The notes beneath the pieces are model-generated. The model was not told the origin of the DNA, made no database searches, and saw only the letters and a program-made list of their open reading frames with translations. The position numbers and the translations under genes are program-made. Positions 19,623-61,291 of a stretch of 64,000 bases of DNA are shown here, one piece after another (positions within the stretch are counted from its first letter, which is position 1; each line of letters starts with the position of its first letter). This DNA comes from Eledone cirrhosa (lineage: Eukaryota), in the NCBI GenBank assembly GCA_964016885.1, contig OZ024740.1, forward strand, positions 265,856,001 through 265,920,000, in the 5' to 3' direction.

Positions 19623-20379
19623 TTTCTTTTCATACATGCCTATGTATATATGCCTGAGTATTGGAGGATATGAAATAAAGATAGTTTGGGAATATGTGCA
19701 GATTACTTCTATCTGATTATTTTCTTCTATGCATAAGATCTTTCTAACGATGTACGTGGTTCATTTCTGCAGGGTTGATAATTTAAGTAACAATAAAAAA
19801 AAAAATTATCAGTAATCCCTGAAACGATTATTTCAACTATGATTGCGTTGTTCTAAGAAAGGAAGTAATCAATATTTAATACTTTGATAATTAACTTATG
19901 CACAAATATCAATCGAAGTATACTAGCTTGAAGTGTCTGGTAAGAACATTTCATGATCTATATTCAATATTCTATATTTCTAAATTGGATCATACAGGGA
20001 TGTTCCAAATTTGTACTGATTTAGACAGATACATTTATCAATGAGTTGAATTACTTTTCTCTCGGCATGAACCAGTGGGAAACAGCAATTCTTTTTGAAT
20101 AGAAGAATTTTAGATAAAATTTCTTTTTCAGTAGCTGTCTTGGCAGAAATATTGTTATATCAAAAATATAAAGAAAAACATTAATGAGAACGGAACATTA
20201 TGCACACAACTACTTCACTTGTAAAACATTTATCTTAGATGTTATTGAAATATCCAACAAAACTATCATAATTTTACTCATTTACAACGATTATTAATGC
20301 GCCCATGATTATTACTTTGTCGAAATAAATGAATCGCTAGAAATTATTGGAGAACAAGAATGAGATAAACAGTGACGTT

Positions 20380-20560
20380 CTTCTTTGGGAACCGAAGCAT
20401 GGGTATGGAAATGTTGGCAGACCACATCGAACCTACATAATGCACCTGTGCGAGGATCCTGGGTGCACCCAAGAAGACCTACCACGAGCACTGGCTGACC
20501 GAAGAGACTAGAGAGAACGAGTCATGGTGTGTCTTACAATAAGCACGACCGGATGATGAT
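20380..20560 (+). pseudogene. RTE-type LINE 3' end
   Basis: LLWEPKHG.G.VGRP..TYI..LCED followed by a (GAT)n tail. Confidence 0.6.
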
Positions 20561-20579
20561 GGCAGTTATTACTATAAAG

Positions 20580-20880
20580 CTCCCTTCGAATACGACTGAA
20601 CATGGGTTTGCATCCGGAAAGTTATTTTCCTTTGAGCAAGCCTGCGCAAGGTGTATTTTGTAGAACAGCAGTCACTCATGCATGCCAATCTCTCATCTGT
20701 ACGATGTCGTCCAAGGGAAAGGGGAAGCCGGATACAGTGTCATTGCAACTCATTTTTTCCAGCTGAGTAGACTGGTTCAACGTGAAGCACGTGTTTCTCA
20801 ACGCACTCTCTGTTTTGGAAATCGAACTCATGGCCTTACGATCATGAGTATAACACACTAACCACTAAGCCACACGCTTT
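20580..20880 (-). mobile_element. tRNA-derived SINE (second family), decayed
   Basis: Minus strand has box A TGGCTTAGTGG and box B GAGTTCGATTTCC. Related decayed SINEs near 9780-10150, 14580-14760, 18640-18740, 21660-21820 and 63880-64000. Confidence 0.6.
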
Positions 20881-20960
20881 CACTTACACCTTAGACCGAA
20901 CAGGTTTTGTTGTTTCTTAAATAGTCAGATAACATATTGGATTCAAACATTATGTTACCT

Positions 20961-21388
20961 TATATTACATTAAAATAATTGTTTCTACTATTGGCACATA
21001 GCCAGCAATTACCCAGTGCATTACTGGTACTTTATTTTACCGACCCCGTAAGGATGAAAGGCAAAGTTAACCTCGGCGGGATTTGAACTCAGAATGGCAA
21101 GGGCCATAACTCCATGCGTCAAAGCATGGCGTCCGACCCTCGACCGATACTGCCAATCTACCGCCTATATTACATTAAAATAATTGTTCCTATTTTAGGC
21201 ACAAGGCCAGCAATTATCCAGTACATTACTGGTACTTTATTTTATCGACACCGTAAGGATGAAAAGCAAAGTTAACCTCGACGGGATTTGAACTCAGATC
21301 ATAAAGGGACGTAACTCTATGCTTCAAAGCATGGTGTCCGACTCTCTACCGATACTGCCAATCCACCGCCTATATTACATTAAAATAA
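20961..21388 (-). mobile_element. Two tandem Nin-domain SINEs, separated and flanked by TATATTACATTAAAATA
   Basis: Box A TGGCAGTATCGG, box B GTTCAAATCC and Nin domain. The 17-bp sequence occurs at 20961, 21166 and 21371. Confidence 0.9.
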
Positions 21389-22740
21389 TATAACCAAATG
21401 TTATCTAAGATAAAAAAAATGTTCCTTTGAAAAATAGATTTTCTTGGTGAATGCATGAGGTGAAGTAATACAGTTATGACAACAGTGAGCATGATACAAC
21501 TCCTCCGGAAAATTGCGATGATCACCTGCTCACGACTGAAATTTTTGATTGAACATAAGGCAAATTGTAATTAGGATATTTATATATTTTATATATCTAT
21601 ATAACCTGACTTGCTGTGAACTCGAATATATTTCTATTCTAAGCTGAATAAGTAAGTAACATGGCAGAATGGTAAAGTCATTTTCTTTGCAACCATTAGA
21701 TCCCGGGTTTGATCTCAATGCATGGAATCTTGGGCAAGTGTCATTGACTATAACCTTAGGTCGACTTGAGCCTTGTGAGTGAAATTGTGTAGACGGAAAC
21801 TGTTTGGAAGTTCGTCGGATAGACTGTAATACTTTATATTTTAGTTATCATTTTATTCAATATACAGAATCTCACAATGTTGGGAAAGCCATTGACATTA
21901 TACAATTGAGCAGTATTTAATCAAATCAAAACACACTAATAAAGGGAACAGAAAGAGAAGAAAAATGAAAAGGAAATGGAGAAAAAAAAAAGGATAAAGC
22001 GTCGAAAGAAAGAGAGAGAGGGTGGGACAGTCTCTACACCCCAGTCTTCCTAATTCAAAGGGCCAGTGTCACAATATACCTCCTTGTAAGCTACTTTAAG
22101 AATACATAGACCTGTATTTGAAATGTCCAGTCTCATTCCCGTTACTTTAATGAGCAGGCTGTTCCGTTGATCAAACAACAGGAGCAATTATCATTGAATC
22201 CAATGGAAGCCCATTTAGCCCATGACTATCTTTTTTTTCTGTTTTCTTTCATATCATTCTCAATTATTAGTCATTGTATCGTTCACCTCTTTATGAGTAT
22301 TTAACCAGATTCCATTTCTTATTTATCAAAACGTTTGTTCGTTTCCTTTCATTTTTTTCATCCTTACTTCAAAAACATTATTGATTTTCTCTGTTATTCA
22401 CCTTTTCTTTTTCTTATCAGCTATCATCTTATCTGTTTCACATCATTTCATTTTCCTTACCTTCCTTTTCAAACCAAACTTACAGATTCGTCATATTACT
22501 CTTTCAGAAACATTTCCTCTTCTATTACCTATTACATGTTTTCTATAAATGCAGTGGCCTCGGATTCCTTATGCATGCAGCATCCCCCAAGCGTCAACTT
22601 CTTGGTGCTTATTTCCGAACACAGCCATCGAACGGCAGCATTTAGAAAACCTTTGGCTGCACTGTTCTTTAATGAGATCTATAAATATTTATCACATACT
22701 TGTATGTAAACAATTGTACTCCGGAAAGACTATTATTGCA

Positions 22741-22812
<72 letters not shown>

Positions 22813-22966
22813 GTGTGTATGTGTGTGTGTATACTATGTATATAGATATAGAGAGTGTGATAGAATGGGATAGACAGGTATAAACGTATATGTGCGTATA
22901 TACATATAAACCAAGATAGATAAATAAATAAATATATATGCCCGCACGCACTCACACGCACACGCA

Positions 22967-23114
<148 letters not shown>

Positions 23115-23266
23115 TGTGTGTATATATATATATTTATATATATATATATATATATATACATACATACATTTATATATGTGTGAGTCCGAAAACTACGACA
23201 CCAATGCCGCCATTATTTTGCTCGTGTTTATTTCATTTCCATGAACAATTATTAGGATTCATGTAT

Positions 23267-23314
23267 TGTGCTTGAAGACGAAGTAGGAGTATGTTCTGAA
23301 AAATGTTTAGTACA
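23267..23314 (+). ncRNA. Degenerate minimal hammerhead
   Basis: TGTGC-TTGAAGA-CGAA..TTCT-GAAA-AATGTT-TA^GTACA. Confidence 0.4.
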
Positions 23315-23487
23315 CTAAATACAGATTTAGTAAACGCGCATTGACAATGGAATGGACACAAGATATTGACGACGAAAGCTTTTGTTAAAAGTAGCTTTTA
23401 GGATATGATATAATAGATTTAAGTATAGGAACATTAAGAGCTTCAGAAAGCTATTTGGATGTCTGTTGAGTTAAGTACATAAGAATG

Positions 23488-23555
<68 letters not shown>

Positions 23556-23844
23556 TATATAAATGTAAGTCTGTATGTATACGTACATACATATATGTAT
23601 ACAGACGTACAGTAGCATGCATATATATACATATATATATATATATACATATATATACATATATATACATATATATACATATATGCATACAGGTACACAT
23701 ACATATATGCACGCATCAGTTTAGCGGACGTTTATTACAACGCCGCTTTGTTCGTTTGTTTGTCAACAAACCGAACAGCCTGAATTTATGCCATACGGTG
23801 TTAAGGCAACCACGTCACCTTTTTGTTCAACACTGACACAGGAA

Positions 23845-23885
23845 CGATGTACTAGTTTCAAGCTTGTTAGCTATCATCAGCACCG
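23845..23885 (-). ncRNA. Minimal type I hammerhead (inverted leader copy)
   Basis: Reverse complement of 24136-24176. Confidence 0.85.
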
Positions 23886-24135
23886 TTTACCCATCTGCCA
23901 GATAGTTGAACGTTCGAAAGTATATACTTTCCTTATGAACTTACAGACTTACATTTAAGTAAGTGCCATACTAAGAGTGAGAAATGAAATTTCGTTTTCA
24001 TTTTTTTCAACTTATCGTTTTCGGTATGCCTGACCGATTTAACTCACTCAATATGCAAATTAGGCTGCTCAGCCGTTAATTTTCATAAGGAAAGTATATA
24101 CTTTCGAACGTTCAACTATCTGGCAGATGGGTAAA

Positions 24136-24176
24136 CGGTGCTGATGATAGCTAACAAGCTTGAAACTAGTACATCG
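24136..24176 (+). ncRNA. Minimal type I hammerhead ribozyme, monomer 1
   Basis: CGGTG-CTGATGA-TAGCT aaca AGCTT-GAAA-CTAG-TA^CATCG. Canonical core with palindromic CTAG stem III. Confidence 0.9.
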
Positions 24177-24639
24177 TTCCTGTGTCAGTGTTGAACAAAA
24201 AGGTGACGTGGTTGCCTTAACACCGTATGGCATAAATTCAGGCTGTTCGGTTTGTTGACAAACAAACGAACAAAGCGGCGTTGTAATAAACGTCCGCTAA
24301 ACTGATGCGTGCATATATGTATGTGTACCTGTATGCATATATGTATATATATGTATATATATGTATATATATGTATATATATATATATATGTATATATAT
24401 GCATGCTACTGTACGTCTGTATACATATATGTATGTACGTATACATACAGACTTACATTTAAGTAAGTGCCATACTAAGAGTGAGAAATGAAATTTCGTT
24501 TTCATTTTTTTCAACTTATCGTTTTCGGTATGCCTGACCGATTTAACTCACTCAATATGCAAATTAGGCTGCTCAGCCGTTAATTTTCATAAGGAAAGTA
24601 TATACTTTCGAACGTTCAACTATCTGGCAGATGGGTAAA

Positions 24640-24680
24640 CGGTGCTGATGATAGCTAACAAGCTTGAAACTAGTACATCG
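24640..24680 (+). ncRNA. Minimal type I hammerhead ribozyme, monomer 2
   Basis: Identical to 24136-24176. Confidence 0.9.
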
Positions 24681-25143
24681 TTCCTGTGTCAGTGTTGAAC
24701 AAAAAGGTGACGTGGTTGCCTTAACACCGTATGGCATAAATTCAGGCTGTTCGGTTTGTTGACAAACAAACGAACAAAGCGGCGTTGTAATAAACGTCCG
24801 CTAAACTGATGCGTGCATATATGTATGTGTACCTGTATGCATATATGTATATATATGTATATATATGTATATATATGTATATATATATATATATGTATAT
24901 ATATGCATGCTACTGTACGTCTGTATACATATATGTATGTACGTATACATACAGACTTACATTTAAGTAAGTGCCATACTAAGAGTGAGAAATGAAATTT
25001 CGTTTTCATTTTTTTCAACTTATCGTTTTCGGTATGCCTGACCGATTTAACTCACTCAATATGCAAATTAGGCTGCTCAGCCGTTAATTTTCATAAGGAA
25101 AGTATATACTTTCGAACGTTCAACTATCTGGCAGATGGGTAAA

Positions 25144-25184
25144 CGGTGCTGATGATAGCTAACAAGCTTGAAACTAGTACATCG
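25144..25184 (+). ncRNA. Minimal type I hammerhead ribozyme, monomer 3
   Basis: Identical to 24136-24176. Confidence 0.9.
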
Positions 25185-25647
25185 TTCCTGTGTCAGTGTT
25201 GAACAAAAAGGTGACGTGGTTGCCTTAACACCGTATGGCATAAATTCAGGCTGTTCGGTTTGTTGACAAACAAACGAACAAAGCGGCGTTGTAATAAACG
25301 TCCGCTAAACTGATGCGTGCATATATGTATGTGTACCTGTATGCATATATGTATATATATGTATATATATGTATATATATGTATATATATATATATATGT
25401 ATATATATGCATGCTACTGTACGTCTGTATACATATATGTATGTACGTATACATACAGACTTACATTTAAGTAAGTGCCATACTAAGAGTGAGAAATGAA
25501 ATTTCGTTTTCATTTTTTTCAACTTATCGTTTTCGGTATGCCTGACCGATTTAACTCACTCAATATGCAAATTAGGCTGCTCAGCCGTTAATTTTCATAA
25601 GGAAAGTATATACTTTCGAACGTTCAACTATCTGGCAGATGGGTAAA

Positions 25648-25688
25648 CGGTGCTGATGATAGCTAACAAGCTTGAAACTAGTACATCG
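25648..25688 (+). ncRNA. Minimal type I hammerhead ribozyme, monomer 4
   Basis: Identical to 24136-24176. Confidence 0.9.
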
Positions 25689-26110
25689 TTCCTGTGTCAG
25701 TGTTGAACAAAAAGGTGACGTGGTTGCCTTAACACCGTATGGCATAAATTCAGGCTGTTCGGTTTGTTGACAAACAAACGAACAAAGCGGCGTTGTAATA
25801 AACGTCCGCTAAACTGATGCGTGCATATATGTATGTGTACCTGTATGCATATATGTATATATATGTATATATATGTATATATATGTATATATATATATAT
25901 ATGTATATATATGCATGCTACTGTACGTCTGTATACATATATGTATGTACGTACACATACAGACTTACATTTAAGTAAGTGCCATACTAAGAGTGAGAAA
26001 TGAAATTTCGTTTTCATTTTTTTTCAACTTAAATATATATAAATATATATCTATATATCTATATATACAATATTAAATAAATGGAAAACTATATTTATAA
26101 AACCATATTT

Positions 26111-26174
26111 ATTTCATTATATATATTTCGGGGATATCATATTAACAATATGCTATGCCTTCATCAGACAAAAT
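26111..26174 (-). ncRNA. Type I hammerhead of a separate pLTR remnant
   Basis: ATTTTGT-CTGATGA-AGGCATAGCATATT gtt AATATGATATCCCC-GAAA-TATATA-TA^ATGAAAT. Confidence 0.7.
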
Positions 26175-26540
26175 ACAATATAAACAGTTTTATAGATAAA
26201 TATATTCGACATACCGTAATAAACATCAACTTCATTTGAAGAGGTTCACTCTAGCAGTGAAAATACAGAGAGAAAGAAAGAGAGAGAGAAAAGAGGGAAA
26301 TAAGAAAGAAAGAAAGACAAAACGAAGAAAAGGAAGAAAAAGAAGAAAAAGAAGAAATGCATGGGACAAAATAGAGAGATGGAAAAATAGATAAAGCGAA
26401 GAGCTTCATGTAAAGAGACCGAAAGAGATATATATATATATAGAGAGAGAGAGGAAATAGAGATAGATACATATATAAATATAGATATAGAAAAATTAGG
26501 TAGTGGGAGGTCATTTTGAGTAAGTGTATCAATGATGCAT

Positions 26541-26575
<35 letters not shown>

Positions 26576-27118
26576 GCTCAAGTATTAATGTAAGGGAGAT
26601 ATATAGAGAGATATAGAGAGATATAGAGAGAGAAAAATTTAAAAATATTTAAAAATAGCCAGACATATTCGAGGCGTAGAAAACCCTATGTTTTAATGTA
26701 TTAGTATTTATAAAACTTACACTATATTGTAAATATCAGTATTCCTGAATGAAACAAGTATTCACAATGCGTGAAAATTCATTATCTTATGTTTAGTTTT
26801 TTTTTAAAAATTCATATGTCTATGTGAATCCAACTGATTCACTCCGCAAATTCAAAGTTACCGGAAAACATTCTCAATGTGGTATAAAAATTTGAGCGTA
26901 TTATTATTCTCTACAAGATTATCTATCAAGCAGAAATAGAGAGCAGATTTCAATATACTAATCGAAAATATATATTATATTATAAGCAGAGATAACAATA
27001 ATAATGATAATAAGTAAAAATATATAAAAATATAAAAATATAGAATAGAAAACTAAAAAAGAATATATATATATATATATATATAAATATATATAAATAT
27101 ATATCTATATATCTATAT

Positions 27119-27149
<31 letters not shown>

Positions 27150-27278
27150 AATATATATATGTATGTATATATACATATATAAAATATATATATATATATA
27201 TATGTAAATATATAAAAGATATATATATATAAGATATGTATATATAAGATATATATATAAGATGTATATATATATAAG

Positions 27279-27333
<55 letters not shown>

Positions 27334-27337
<4 letters not shown>

Positions 27338-27757
27338 ATCATGAATAGGTAAAGCAATTAAGATAAAAATTACCTCAAATGAATTGTGGTCCCAACTGCA
27401 GTTTCACCGTAAAGAGTATACCAGATATTTGAATAATTAATCATATAATAATTTATAATATTAGGCTAGGTGAATGGGCTCTTCAGGGAACCTTCTCATA
27501 TTAAGAAAAAATTCACAAGAAGGGAAGTCCATCAATTACTTCCCTTCTTGTGAACTATATACCACACGATGCGTGTCCCTTTCGAAAACATCAGTGGTAG
27601 CGATCACTAGAAATTTCTCTTAATATAAGAAGGTTCCCTGATGAGCCCATTCTCCTAGCCTTATATAATAAATTATTAGTCTTTACGTTAGTTGGGACCA
27701 AGAAGTATTTGAGGTAATTTTTTTTTCTCAATTACTTTGCTCATTCATGATTTTATA
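27334..27757. mobile_element. Older fold-back element with diverged arms and inner 17-bp hairpin (27512-27554)
   Basis: 27334-27510 is approximately the reverse complement of 27612-27757. Confidence 0.75.
27388..27492 (-). ncRNA. Type I hammerhead with ~74-nt stem II region
   Basis: GGTTCC-CTGAAGA-GCC...GGT-GAAA-CTGCAG-TT^GGGACC. Confidence 0.7.
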
Positions 27758-27931
27758 ATGCTCTGGCTGATTGATTAATTATTTAGTGAAGATTGTAATT
27801 GATGCACAAGTTTATATGTGTGTATATGCTTATGAATATATGTATACATATGTATTCAATTATGTATATATGTGCCTTCAGTTATGGCTAAGTAGTGAAT
27901 ATTGTTAATCTGGAGTTTCACTTACGAACTA

Positions 27932-27982
27932 TCATGTCTGATGACCCTGCGCGTGCGCAGGTGAAATTCCAGAGTAACAAGA
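27932..27982 (+). ncRNA. Type I hammerhead, preceded by an inverted fragment of its 3' half (27882-27921)
   Basis: TCATGT-CTGATGA-CCCTGCGC gt GCGCAGGT-GAAA-TTCCAGAG-TA^ACAAGA. Confidence 0.75.
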
Positions 27983-28473
27983 CTCACTACTTAGACATAA
28001 TACATGAATATTTAAACTTTTCTTCGGTATTGAGTAGTCTTTTCTCTTGTTCCTCAACTACATACGGATATGTATATATATATATGAATATATAACAATT
28101 TAAATAGAAAATAGAAGGCTTCACCGTAACATTTCACTAAATAATATAGTCTAATAACGGGGCGTATAAACCCACTGATCGGAAAAATATAGATATCAGC
28201 ACACAAAAGCGCACGCACACGCACACACACACATACGCAAATACACACATGAACACACACAAACACACTGACATACACACACATATATATATATAATATA
28301 GGTGACTTTAGTGGAGTATTCCACTATTAAATTTGGTAAGGTGACAAAAGTTCTATGCACACTAGAATTGTCAGATCGTAAGGAGTTTAAAACAATCGAA
28401 AGAAATCTTCAGAAATTAAAGTCCTTGTTGTTGAGGACAGTTCAAGTAGCAGAACATTATTATTTAAAATCTG

Positions 28474-28668
28474 GGCGGTGGATTGGCAGTATCGGTAGAG
28501 GGCCGGACGCCATGCTTTGAAGCATAGAGTTACCTCCCTTTATGATCTGAATTCAAATCCCACCGAGGGTAACTTTGCCTTTCATCCTTACAGGGTCGAT
28601 AAAATAAAGTACCAGTAATACACTGGGATAATTGCTGGCCTTTTACCAAAAGTAGGAACAATTATTAT
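28474..28668 (+). mobile_element. Nin-domain tRNA SINE, full length
   Basis: Box A/B, Nin domain and ATT tail. ATTATTATT.AAAAT flanks look like a target-site duplication. Confidence 0.85.
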
Positions 28669-28707
28669 TCAAAATGACAAAAAGACCAATGTTAACCACT
28701 TATAAAC

Positions 28708-29487
28708 ATCCCGAATTACGCCGTACAGTGCTCGGCAACCATCGTTGACCTTTTGTTCAACACTGACACAGGAACGATGTACTAGTTTCAAGCTTATTAG
28801 CTATTGTCAGCATCGTATACCTTTCTGTCAGATGATTGAACGTCTGAAAGTATATACTTTCCTTGTGCATATTAAAGGCTGAGCAGCCTAATTTTGCATA
28901 TCGAGTGTGTTAGTCGGCCGGGCGTACCGGAAACGATAAATGGAAAAGAATGAAACGACATTTCATTTCTCACTCAAAGTACGGCTGATACCTAAATATA
29001 AGTATGTTTACGTACATACATATATGTGTACAGACGCACAGTAGTATGTATATATATACATACATGCATACATATATATATATACGGTATGACCGGCCGA
29101 CTAACTCACTCGATATGCAAATTAGGCTGCTCAGCCGTTAATATGCATAAGGAAAGTATATACTTTCAGACCTTCAATCATCTGACAGAAAGGTATACGA
29201 TGCTGACGATAGCTAATACGCTTGAAACTAGTACATCTTTCCTAAGAGCGACGATGTTTGCCGAGCACTGTACGGCGTAATTCGGGCTGTTTGTTTACAA
29301 ACAAACCGAACATTATAATAAATGTTCAGTAAACCCATACGTACATATAAATATATATGTGTGCATGTATGTATATATACATACTACTGTGCGTCTGTAC
29401 ACATATATGTATGTACGTATACATACTTATATTTAGGTATCAGCCGTACTAAGAGTGAGAAATGAAATTTCGTTTCATTATTTTCCA
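28708..29487. mobile_element. Diverged relative of the 504-bp retrozyme family, two head-to-head permuted segments
   Basis: Clear similarity to the 504-bp unit. HHRs at 28775-28815 (-; CTGACAA) and 29198-29238 (+; CTGACGA..GAAACTAGTA). Confidence 0.85.
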
Positions 29488-29504
29488 TATATATATATAT
29501 ATAT

Positions 29505-29703
29505 AAACAAAGAGGGTGTGGTAAGATACCAGGTAGACCATAACGCACCAGAATACTCGATAAATGGGGTAGTAGAGTGGGTAATATAAAAAGAATCAGG
29601 ACTCCGACGGCTGACCTCCATCCGTTTCGACAGCTAGACCCGAAATGGCGTTCGGATGTAGCTGTCGAAACGGCCGAAGGTCAGCCGTCAGGGTCCTGAA
29701 TCT

Positions 29704-29710
<7 letters not shown>
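29505..29710 (-). mobile_element. Fold-back pLTR tip; palindrome 29585-29710 with apex in HHR stem II
   Basis: GACAGCTA..TAGCTGTC-GAAA-CGG..CCG-TC; both arms carry only the 3' half of the HHR. (TA)n flanks. Confidence 0.7.
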
Positions 29711-29781
<71 letters not shown>

Positions 29782-29944
29782 TACGAAACTTATATTCACA
29801 CATCACTACTCCGAGTATCATTGAAGAATGAACTACATGACAGTTAATTTATACTGGCAGTAACTTCGATTTTTCGATTCCACTCTATTTCCATATGCAT
29901 ATATTCCAAGTAAAAGAAATCAACTGTTTAGGTCTTAAATATAT

Positions 29945-30036
29945 TCTTCTTCTTCTTCTTCTTCTTCTTCTTCTTCTTCTTCTTCTTCTTCTTCTTCTTC
30001 TTCTTCTTCTTCTTCTTCTTCTTCTTCTTCTTCTTC
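29945..30036. repeat. (TTC)n microsatellite
   Basis: Direct inspection. Confidence 0.95.
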
Positions 30037-44130: not shown

Positions 44131-44910
44131 TTCTGAGTTCAAATCTCGATGAGGTTAACTTTGCCTTTCATCCTTACGGGGTCGATAAAATAAAGTACCA
44201 GTAATGTACTGGGTAATTGCTGGTCTTGTGCCAAAAATAGAAACAATTATTATTAGTTGTAGTAAGGGTGGTGGATTGGCAGTATTGGTAGAGGGTCGGA
44301 CGCCATGCTTTGCAGCAGAGAGTTACGGCCCTTTATGATGTGAGTTCAAATCCCGCCGAGGTTAACTTTGCCTTTCATCCTTACGGGGTCGATAAAATAA
44401 AGTACCAGTAATGCACTGGGTAATAATTGCTGGTCTTGTGCCAAAAATAGAAACAATTATTATTAGTTGTAGTAAGGGTGGTGGATTGGCAGTATTGGTA
44501 GAGGGTCGGACGCCATGCTTTGCAGCAGAGAGTTACGGCCCTTTATGATGTGAGTTCAAATCCCGCCGAGGTTAACTTTGCCTTTCATCCTTACGGGGTC
44601 GATAAAATAAAGTACCAGTAATGCACTGGGTAATAATTGCTGGTCTTGTGCCAAAAATAGAAACAATTATTATTAGTTGTAGTAAGGGTGGTGGATTGGC
44701 AGTATTGGTAGAGGGTCGGACGCCATGCTTTGCAGCAGAGAGTTACGGCCCTTTATGATGTGAGTTCAAATCCCGCCGAGGTTAACTTTGCCTTTCATCC
44801 TTACGGGGTCGATAAAATAAATCACCAGTAACGTATTGGGGTCGATTTAATCGACTCATCCCCCCACCAAATTACTAACCTTGTGCCTATACTAGAAATT
44901 ATTATCATTA
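44131..44910 (+). repeat. Tandem array of Nin-SINE, 210-bp period (~3.5 units)
   Basis: Identical blocks at 44281, 44491 and 44701. Confidence 0.92.
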
Positions 44911-54397: not shown

Positions 54398-54541
54398 AAG
54401 GATGATGACGATGATGACGATGATGACGATGAAGAAGAAGAAGAAGAAGAAGAAGAAGAAGAAGAAGAAGAAGAAGAAGAAGAAGAAGAAGAAGAAGAAG
54501 AAGAAGAAGAAGAAGAAGAAGAAGAAGAAGAAGAAGAAGAA
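54330..54541. repeat. (GAT)n(GAA)n microsatellite
   Basis: Direct inspection. Confidence 0.95.
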
Positions 54542-54552
54542 ATATTATTTTC

Positions 54553-55050
54553 AATAATTGTTTCTACTTTTGGCACAAGGCCAGCAATTACCCAGTGCAT
54601 TACTGGTACTTTATTTTATCGACCCCGTAAGGATGAAAGGCAAAGTCAATATTATTTTCAATAATTGTTTCTACTTTAGGCACAAGGCCAGCAATTACCC
54701 AGTGCATTACTGGTACTTTATTTTATCGACCCCGTAAGGATGAAAGGCAAAGTCAACCTCGGCGGGATTTGAACTCAGATCGTAAAGGGACGTAACTATG
54801 CTGGAAAGCATGGCGTCCGACCCTCTACCGATACTGCCAATCCACCGCCCTTTTCAATAGTGGTGGATTGGTAGTATCAGTAGAGTGTCGGACGCCATGC
54901 TTTGCAGCATAGCGTTACGTTCCTGTACGGTCTGAGTTCAAATCCTGCCGAGGTTAACTTTGCCTTTTATCCTTACGGGGTCGATAAAATAAATAACAGT
55001 AATGCACTGGGATAATTGCTGGCCTTGTGCCAAAGGTAGAAACAATTATT
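54553..55050. mobile_element. Head-to-head Nin-SINE pair (54661-54850 minus, 54861-55050 plus) plus ~107-bp partial duplication
   Basis: Family sequence on both strands, about 10 bp apart. Confidence 0.88.
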
Positions 55051-60812: not shown

Positions 60813-60854
<42 letters not shown>

Positions 60855-60858
<4 letters not shown>

Positions 60859-61291
60859 AAAGAATAGAGGTGTAACACACAAGTTATTATATATTGGTAA
60901 ACGGAATAGAAAATGCTAACAAATTGTTCACAGTTGAAAAATGGTTTAATTAGGAATAAAAGAGTATTAGTGATTGTATGGGTTAGTATTCAGTTGTGGT
61001 TTTAAGTTTTTAAGTTTTTACCGGTTGCGCATTTCTAAATGCTTTTCAAAAATAATTTTGAGATAGAGTGTCCGTGCTGTTTGCTCTGATCAGAGCAAAC
61101 AGCACGGACACTCTATCTCAAAATTATTTTTGAAAAGCATTTAGAAATGCGCAACCGGTAAAAACTTAAAAACTTAAAACCACAACTGAATACTAACCCA
61201 TACAATCACTAATACTCTTTTATTCCTAATTAAACCATTTTTCAACTGTGAACAATTTGTCAGCATTTTCTATTCCGTTTACCAATATATA
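60855..61291. mobile_element. Loop-less fold-back of a Neptune-like pLTR; 202-bp arms, axis 61089/61090
   Basis: Apex CTCTGA|TCAGAG with about one mismatch in the arms. Variant HHR at 61126-61164 and its mirror; (TA)n flanks. Confidence 0.92.

Follow-up and report, generated by a model that had tools for sequence, protein, structure and literature searches.

Metazoan retrozymes have been argued to be non-autonomous derivatives of Penelope-like elements (PLEs) in the available text of bioRxiv 10.64898/2026.07.22.740005, with their mobilization by PLEs having so far been argued from co-occurrence and likeness to pLTRs. PLE insertions, as described in the available portions of PMC8557442 and PMC3846280, are found in (TA)n and often carry a tail at one end only, next to an inverted and truncated copy. 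This tail has been equated with the distance between two internal start sites of reverse transcription, and the PLE enzyme cuts and extends both target strands in vitro (PMC11167929). How the tandem and inverted PLE insertions form is named as open in the available text of PMC8557442 and PMC11167929, while circles have been proposed as the templates of PLE tandems (PMC4209133). As for the ribozyme, cleavage is described as dispensable for insertion (PMC11167929), and one of nine Xenopus retrozyme dimers was cleaved in vitro (bioRxiv 10.64898/2026.07.22.740005).

The locus considered here lies in a 64,000-nt stretch of the Eledone cirrhosa genome (hereinafter the window), in which a 504-nt repeat with an inverted arm is confirmed as real, young and abundant (Table 1).

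Table 1. Features of the two-armed insertion in the window; unit positions are numbered from the hammerhead cut.
Feature	Position	Strand	Remarks
Left target-site duplication	23550..23561	.	12 bp, inside the (TA)n tract; same sequence as 26030-26041
Inverted arm, 0.75 unit	23562..23939	-	3′ end of the RNA (23562) at the "short" start site, unit position 288
Inverted-arm hammerhead motif	23844..23886	-	Predicted cut after 23850
Direct arm, 4.15 units of 504 nt	23940..26029	+	RNA 3′ end (26029) at the "long" start site, unit position 345
Hammerhead 1 with extended stem I	24109..24196	+	Predicted cut after 24171; based on fold and pair counts
Hammerhead 2	24639..24681	+	Predicted cut after 24675
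Hammerhead 3	25143..25185	+	Predicted cut after 25179
Hammerhead 4	25647..25689	+	Predicted cut after 25683
AT-rich palindromic stretch of the unit	24301..24456	+	Long predicted hairpin; stops just 5′ of the short start site
"Tail" between both start sites, ~57 nt	25972..26029	+	Conserved hairpin inside; at this end only
Right target-site duplication	26030..26041	.	12 bp; same sequence as 23550-23561
Second, older two-armed copy	28705..29490	.	Same lineage, 73-87% identical; separate insertion

An earlier note on this DNA had described about 4.1 near-identical tandem units, each non-coding and with a hammerhead core, preceded by an exact inverted copy of 379 bp, and most of this description stands. 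The period of 504 extends from 23939 to about 26020 with 2 mismatches (i versus i+504, at 23941 and 25450), the last partial unit having one additional T, and the inverted stretch (23560-23939, 380 nt) is 100% complementary to every array unit. Four hammerhead cores are found on the forward strand and one on the reverse, ending at the cuts given in Table 1, with an atypical U.U at pair 10.1-11.1. In five frames the longest stop-free stretch is 53-75 aa, and in an antisense frame across the microsatellite it reaches 120 aa; the 504-nt unit has no reverse transcriptase (RT) or GIY-YIG ORF. The placement of the insertion in (TA)n also holds, while its bounds shift from 23561..26030 to 23562-26029, between the two copies of a 12-bp duplicated word that is itself an interrupted (TA)n. 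This single duplication encloses both arms, in agreement with the claim of one young insertion. The mirror points of the arms are 142 nt apart, which is not a short hairpin loop. The GC content of the unit is 0.35, no terminal direct repeats are seen besides the units themselves, and the length of the palindromic AT-rich stretch sets that of the unit, which varies from 420 to 556 nt between loci. A locus-private base is present in 5/5 copies at the locus and in 0/198 copies in other fetched loci, so a collapsed or invented assembly is hardly to be expected. The older copy in the window has lost one end, and both of its hammerheads are mutated.

Across the 3.0-Gb genome, the exact 36-nt core has 10,412 matches and a relaxed core 26,120 copies, with none for the reversed control in either search; the exact motif is thus not a product of chance. 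The family is dispersed, and the arrays of variable unit number that the earlier note had anticipated do exist, as insertions extend from a fraction of one unit up to 15+ units. Older subfamilies have units of 419-433 nt with 81% identity, and a colinear sister family (1,448 exact motif copies) has a 469-nt unit with 62% identity and a hammerhead with the canonical G10.1-C11.1 pair. These three lineages diverge by up to 38%; they are colinear and lack an ORF along the whole unit, and the subfamilies are separated by indels, consistent with a non-coding unit. The sister family was encountered at L318:1700-4600, L317 and L334-L363, with one array of ~27 units in which motif gaps recur at intervals of 7-8 units. 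A public run of unknown kind has contigs that carry the 504-nt family at great depth, including two opposite-strand joints, and the contigs of X4 and X5 yielded 0 and 2 pieces, respectively. No RNA run was listed as containing the sequence, and about 12% of one RNA run, from an organism not shown to carry the element, gave 0 reads. No description of the family was found in the open literature searched, and the supplements of PMC7229834, PMC8557442 and bioRxiv 10.64898/2026.07.22.740005 may list related motifs. An unrelated 310-nt tandem hammerhead repeat, with 8 motif copies arranged head-to-head (L047:5990-8300), also has the U.U in stem II, and its stem III is palindromic.

In the first hammerhead of the array, stem I is formed by 24135-24140 with 24172-24177 around a core at 24141-24171, and stem III is palindromic. 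Assessed by hand, the core is complete, the 6-bp stem I is prolonged as a long interrupted helix, and stem II has 4 bp following the U.U that stands in place of the usual G10.1-C11.1 pair. Thus, while the 504-nt unit has the palindromic 15.2-16.2 and loop 3 of the minimal PLE hammerheads, it lacks their G10.1-C11.1 pair with a 7-8 bp helix II. Rfam returned no hammerheads among 102 matches at E<=1 for 20000-30000, where its matches are microsatellite-driven miRNA matches under the gathering score. Pairing of stem III between two units (as a self-duplex) is predicted at -5.4 kcal/mol, and the predicted active fold lies 2.1 kcal/mol above the minimum of the circle. The prediction is of self-cleavage that depends on dimers and is followed by ligation to circles, which would be monomers, or dimers and trimers where one hammerhead is skipped; dimer cleavage was reportedly described by Lunse et al. 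in 2017. The fold has a z of -5.5 for 344 nt of the unit, the microsatellite being excluded. Among 30 representatives, 96.8% of the cells in 55 predicted pairs are paired and 8/55 pairs are altered on both sides, counts made in the same alignment from which the 55-pair structure was derived, so that their controls are lenient. A stem I pair alternates as G.U, A-U and U.G across subfamilies, which also differ from one another at core position 7. On the strength of these compensatory changes and the fold z, the lineage appears to have been selected as RNA.

Nearly all arms have their 3′ end at one of two sites, the short one at unit position ~286-288 and the long one at 345, with (TA)n coming next, which places the two start sites about 57 nt apart. 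For a survey of these ends we took the first 100 exact motif matches of contig 1, contained in 50 fetched stretches. All 23 two-armed insertions with both ends called combine one short and one long end, and 34 more ends are unpaired. By eye, 2 of the remaining pairs fit this rule, 6 have one end lost and 2 extend past the fetched stretch; one uncalled pair, at L054, is possibly short+short. The single long+long pair, from the top-hit loci (L042), turned out to consist of two insertions that lie 1.2 kb apart and belong to different subfamilies, and it was excluded. The short+long combination recurs in 7 additional pairs at the top-hit loci, in 8/8 cases in the older subfamilies (20 loci) and in 7/7 in the sister family. 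The target duplication is 12-13 bp at 6 informative sites among 30 two-armed insertions, its length being readable only at interrupted (TA)n targets. The autonomous PLEs of this genome, of which we examined four families (lettered A1, A2, B and C without a tree) among a larger number, obey the same end rule in 13/13 cases for C and 9/9 for A2 (22/22; 20 loci each), with further short+long cases in A1 and B, and the duplications of C and A1 are about 12 bp. The inverted 5′-truncated arm, the one-end tail and the (TA)n target that are hallmarks of PLEs are all found in the 504-nt family, to which the 12-bp duplication may be added. Judged by its ends, then, the element bears a PLE signature without a PLE protein, which agrees with the kind of integration that had been proposed for it.

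The two arms of an insertion differ from each other at 24 of 4,421 sites (21/28 insertions, with the palindrome, unit positions 84-98 and the microsatellite omitted and the 7 with fewer than 40 shared sites dropped), as against 7,668 differences at 185,001 sites between insertions. Moreover, private variants are common to both arms in 6/25 insertions, one of them being a gap, and in one insertion on contig 4 a variant hammerhead stands second from the 3′ end on each arm. The few differences and the private variants on both arms point to one template lineage for the two. Since just 1/56 arm 5′ ends lies within 5 nt of the hammerhead cut, cleaved linear monomers are not the template. Of 28 arm pairs, 5 consist of arms of which neither contains its partner, and in 15 the arm with the short end exceeds the other in length; the distance between the arm 5′ ends is compatible with a uniform distribution (KS p=0.25, 28 junctions), 2/28 junctions being perfect palindromes (distance 0) and 18/28 overlapping by 1-7 nt. 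The inversion junction at L035:4932-4963 consists of four stacked short palindromic copies resembling repeated template switching.

The simplest reading of these data is that of two primings on one concatemeric RNA, which fits better than fold-back because private variants are shared and the arms are often not copies of each other; we regard two primings on one RNA as likely. We found no description of twin priming in PLEs in the open literature searched. The earlier note had instead taken the insertion to be ended by fold-back after rolling reverse transcription around a 504-nt monomer circle. In its full form, this alternative would have one priming, with the folded-back cDNA being copied and an endonuclease trimming one arm to leave the one-end tail. 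It draws on published proposals of self-priming for PLE inversions (PMC3846280) and of endonuclease resolution for the tail (PMC8557442), as well as on the few junctions that are perfect palindromes. Further, rolling around a monomer predicts uniform arrays, and the present homogeneous array and young arrays in general fit this, with a median of 1 difference per 327 sites within arrays and 15 between them (99 units). However, the junction distances look uniform rather than short, as if the 5′ ends were independent stops, either arm may be longer, some pairs are not contained in each other, and the 3′ ends of the two arms are separately fixed, each next to one target duplication. The tail, in turn, matches the two RT start sites observed in vitro (PMC11167929). 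Unit-specific variants that span both arms or alternate along one cannot come from a monomer, and we consider fold-back on a monomer circle unlikely.

These variants come chiefly from a survey of one stem II variant covering 27 places (from 30/36 matches fetched), 4 of which carry the variant more than once: it occupies both units at L383, alternates at L385 and recurs on both arms of the contig 4 insertion noted above. The fourth place, L092, has a three-unit block with the variant, in one copy on one arm and in two copies on its partner, the long arm running past the fetched DNA so that its far end was not reached, and at L065 three variants are common to one unit of each arm. The sister array has mixed unit haplotypes and, like L092, duplicated runs of units. 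Variants that are shared between arms or alternate imply a multimeric template, or else later gene conversion. Hence, the monomer circle of the earlier note suits the homogeneous array, but other loci need a multimeric template, which we infer to be either a linear read-through or a dimer or trimer circle where a hammerhead failed. A circular RNA template is plausible, and we hold the choice between it and linear read-through to be evenly balanced.

The two primings could also have used two sibling RNAs, with an asymmetric enzyme dimer devoting one subunit to each start site. Such a scheme would need no strand displacement to account for the 12-bp duplication and the end rule; a PLE dimer is a published prediction (PMC11167929), and sibling RNAs transcribed from a single locus would have private variants in common. 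On the other hand, the genome has several young subfamilies, yet 0 called pairs mix them, and the in-register variant would require both siblings to have started in the same unit. Weighing against a single RNA, the register test on the other existing pairs is mostly flat or uninformative, and the in-register case is a single insertion. We view the use of two siblings as improbable and retain two primings on one RNA.

Turning to the relation of the element to PLEs, the earlier note had asked whether its genomic copies are always attached to a PLE ORF as a pLTR, and the outcome went against this: at 0/70 loci is a family copy the 3′ terminal repeat of a PLE ORF. At 11 places in these loci a family hammerhead follows the end of a same-strand PLE ORF, which is from one of three protein groups, and in 11/11 a (TA)n tract of 16-128 nt parts the two. 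Families A1, A2, B and C, all intact and abundant, have no significant sequence in common with the unit by BLAST, and the best tail likeness, to A2, is weak (alignment versus shuffles, p 0.02-0.11 in 12 tests). These results support the view that the element is not an ordinary pLTR of the four families examined. The tail of the element measures 57 nt, as compared to about 40 in A1, 43 in C, 63 in A2, 87 in B and about 70 in the sister family; as the last differs from the element, tail length is evidently not fixed by the enzyme. Attempts to assign a driver by tail length or duplication length gave no assignment, ~12 bp being found in both C and A1.

Units that are ordinary truncated pLTRs of another autonomous PLE family, outside these four and stacked in partial tandems, would accord with published work that derives animal retrozymes from pLTRs (bioRxiv 10.64898/2026.07.22.740005) and with the presence of more than four PLE families in the genome. 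However, the units are complete and in fixed order in arrays of 15+, the intervening (TA)n tracts belong to the PLE ORF ends, and the three lineages are colinear and ORF-less throughout. A relaxed hammerhead pattern used to look for a parent gave 33 matches (control 4), mostly mutants of this very family; we hold this alternative to be very improbable. A minisatellite grown by DNA slippage or unequal crossing-over, or an assembly artefact, is scarcely credible, since the insertions are dispersed with fixed ends and target duplications, bear locus-private bases and recur, opposite-strand joints included, in independent contigs of the public run, even if the duplicated unit runs of the sister array and L092 indicate that DNA-level turnover or template jumps may add units during insertion or afterwards.

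The PLE families have features of their own. A1 (L185:5798-9447) has a separate 455-aa frame, without a match in Pfam, upstream of and overlapping a 784-aa RT/GIY-YIG frame. C (L183:735-4382) is very young, with a 1,216-aa frame containing a long asparagine-rich insert, 4.1-kb tandem units and its own hammerhead; 143 of its 144 best matches are 99-100% identical. B (709 aa; L187, L095 and L105) has 46,693 candidates and a hammerhead-like motif with an altered core, having A in place of U4. In the window, a short two-armed insertion of A1 ends, one long and one short, lies in (TA)n at 60850-61290, and four other PLE-type families are represented by motifs of hammerhead or hammerhead-like form at 26068-26230, 5464, 37453, 1265 and 52055, one of which directly adjoins the right target duplication. 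A SINE-like repeat of 205-210 nt, also in short tandems, is found at 20961-21389, 44134-44831, 54541-54756 and 28468-28627; together with the dense (TA)n tracts it presumably recalls octopod genomes.

Bringing these strands together, we posit that the element is very probably non-autonomous and PLE-driven. The family would likely be transcribed as a concatemer, with an autonomous PLE reverse transcriptase-endonuclease likely copying this RNA into (TA)n tracts. The enzyme would nick both target strands 12 bp apart, each nick priming once, at two fixed sites ~57 nt apart on the same RNA. Strand displacement might let both polymerases copy one stretch, random stops would end both cDNAs, and their ends may be joined through the 1-7 nt of microhomology. 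The back-to-back arms with two fixed 3′ ends inside one 12-bp duplication are read from the DNA itself, as are the shared private variants, the read-through of many hammerhead junctions, the want of a coding frame and the compensatory changes that preserve the fold. Taken as a whole, a PLE-copied non-coding hammerhead repeat with two primings on one RNA seems to us a fairly probable explanation. Points on the other side are the lack of the G10.1-C11.1 pair, the in vitro cleavage of only one of nine Xenopus retrozyme dimers (bioRxiv 10.64898/2026.07.22.740005) and the failure to find a driver among the four PLE families examined. More tentatively, the family could go back to an ancient line of viroid-like RNA circles of 420-510 nt, with at least 3 branches up to 38% apart and no surviving parent retroelement, that spreads in this genome by means of borrowed Penelope enzymes, its insertions displaying a general Penelope mechanism in which two polymerases from the nicks of one 12-bp staggered cut chase round a single circular RNA from two fixed sites. 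If true, this would explain tandems, head-to-head inversions and the one-sided tail at once.

By its testable features, the 504-nt element classes as a metazoan non-LTR retrozyme, the kind to which the earlier note had referred it: its type I hammerhead units are short, tandem, non-coding, low in GC and dispersed, with a duplication of more than 4 bp. As in the non-LTR retrozymes described in the available text of Cervera and de la Pena 2020 (PMC7229834) and Li et al. 2026 (bioRxiv 10.64898/2026.07.22.740005), non-coding units of a few hundred bases are arranged in tandem. Each unit has one type I hammerhead and a low GC content, arrays extend from dimers to long multimers, target duplications exceed 4 bp and PLEs coexist (PMC7229834). 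It differs in that its unit exceeds the 170-400 nt shown as circles, and in that most of its insertions have two arms, one with the fixed short end and one with the fixed long end, an arrangement that we did not find in the available portions of those accounts; nor was a parent pLTR found for it, as against the published retrozymes. With EN+ PLEs (PMC8557442, PMC3846280, PMC11167929) it has in common the head-to-head inverted arm, one-end tail, (TA)n targets, scattered 5′ ends and a hammerhead in the repeat. It differs from them in the lack of an RT or GIY-YIG frame and in a tail of 57 nt as against the 30-40 given in the available text, while the PLEs of its own genome have the same end rule and duplication of about 12 bp. 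The minimal PLE hammerheads (Cervera and de la Pena 2014, PMC4209133) likewise have a palindromic stem III suited to dimers and a variable core position 7, whereas the 4-bp stem II after a U.U, in place of their 7-8 bp with G10.1-C11.1, and the stem I prolonged as an interrupted helix set the present unit apart. The retrozyme kind and the one-sided PLE tail were thus already known (PMC7229834; bioRxiv 10.64898/2026.07.22.740005; PMC8557442, in their available text); what is added is that an element without an ORF keeps strictly to the short+long combination and has a single 12-bp duplication. This hammerhead repeat bears all marks of PLE integration, alongside several PLE families that are intact and have spread recently, and a structured substrate of 500 nt, two mapped starts, thousands of natural insertions and candidate enzymes make the PLE mechanism directly testable. 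In L1 twin priming, two target nicks prime on one RNA to give an inversion joined by microhomology, with a variable second start and two cDNAs that do not overlap. The scheme proposed here would resemble it in the two nicks, the one RNA and the microhomology-joined inversion, but its starts are both fixed, and the two arms are copies of one and the same repeated sequence.
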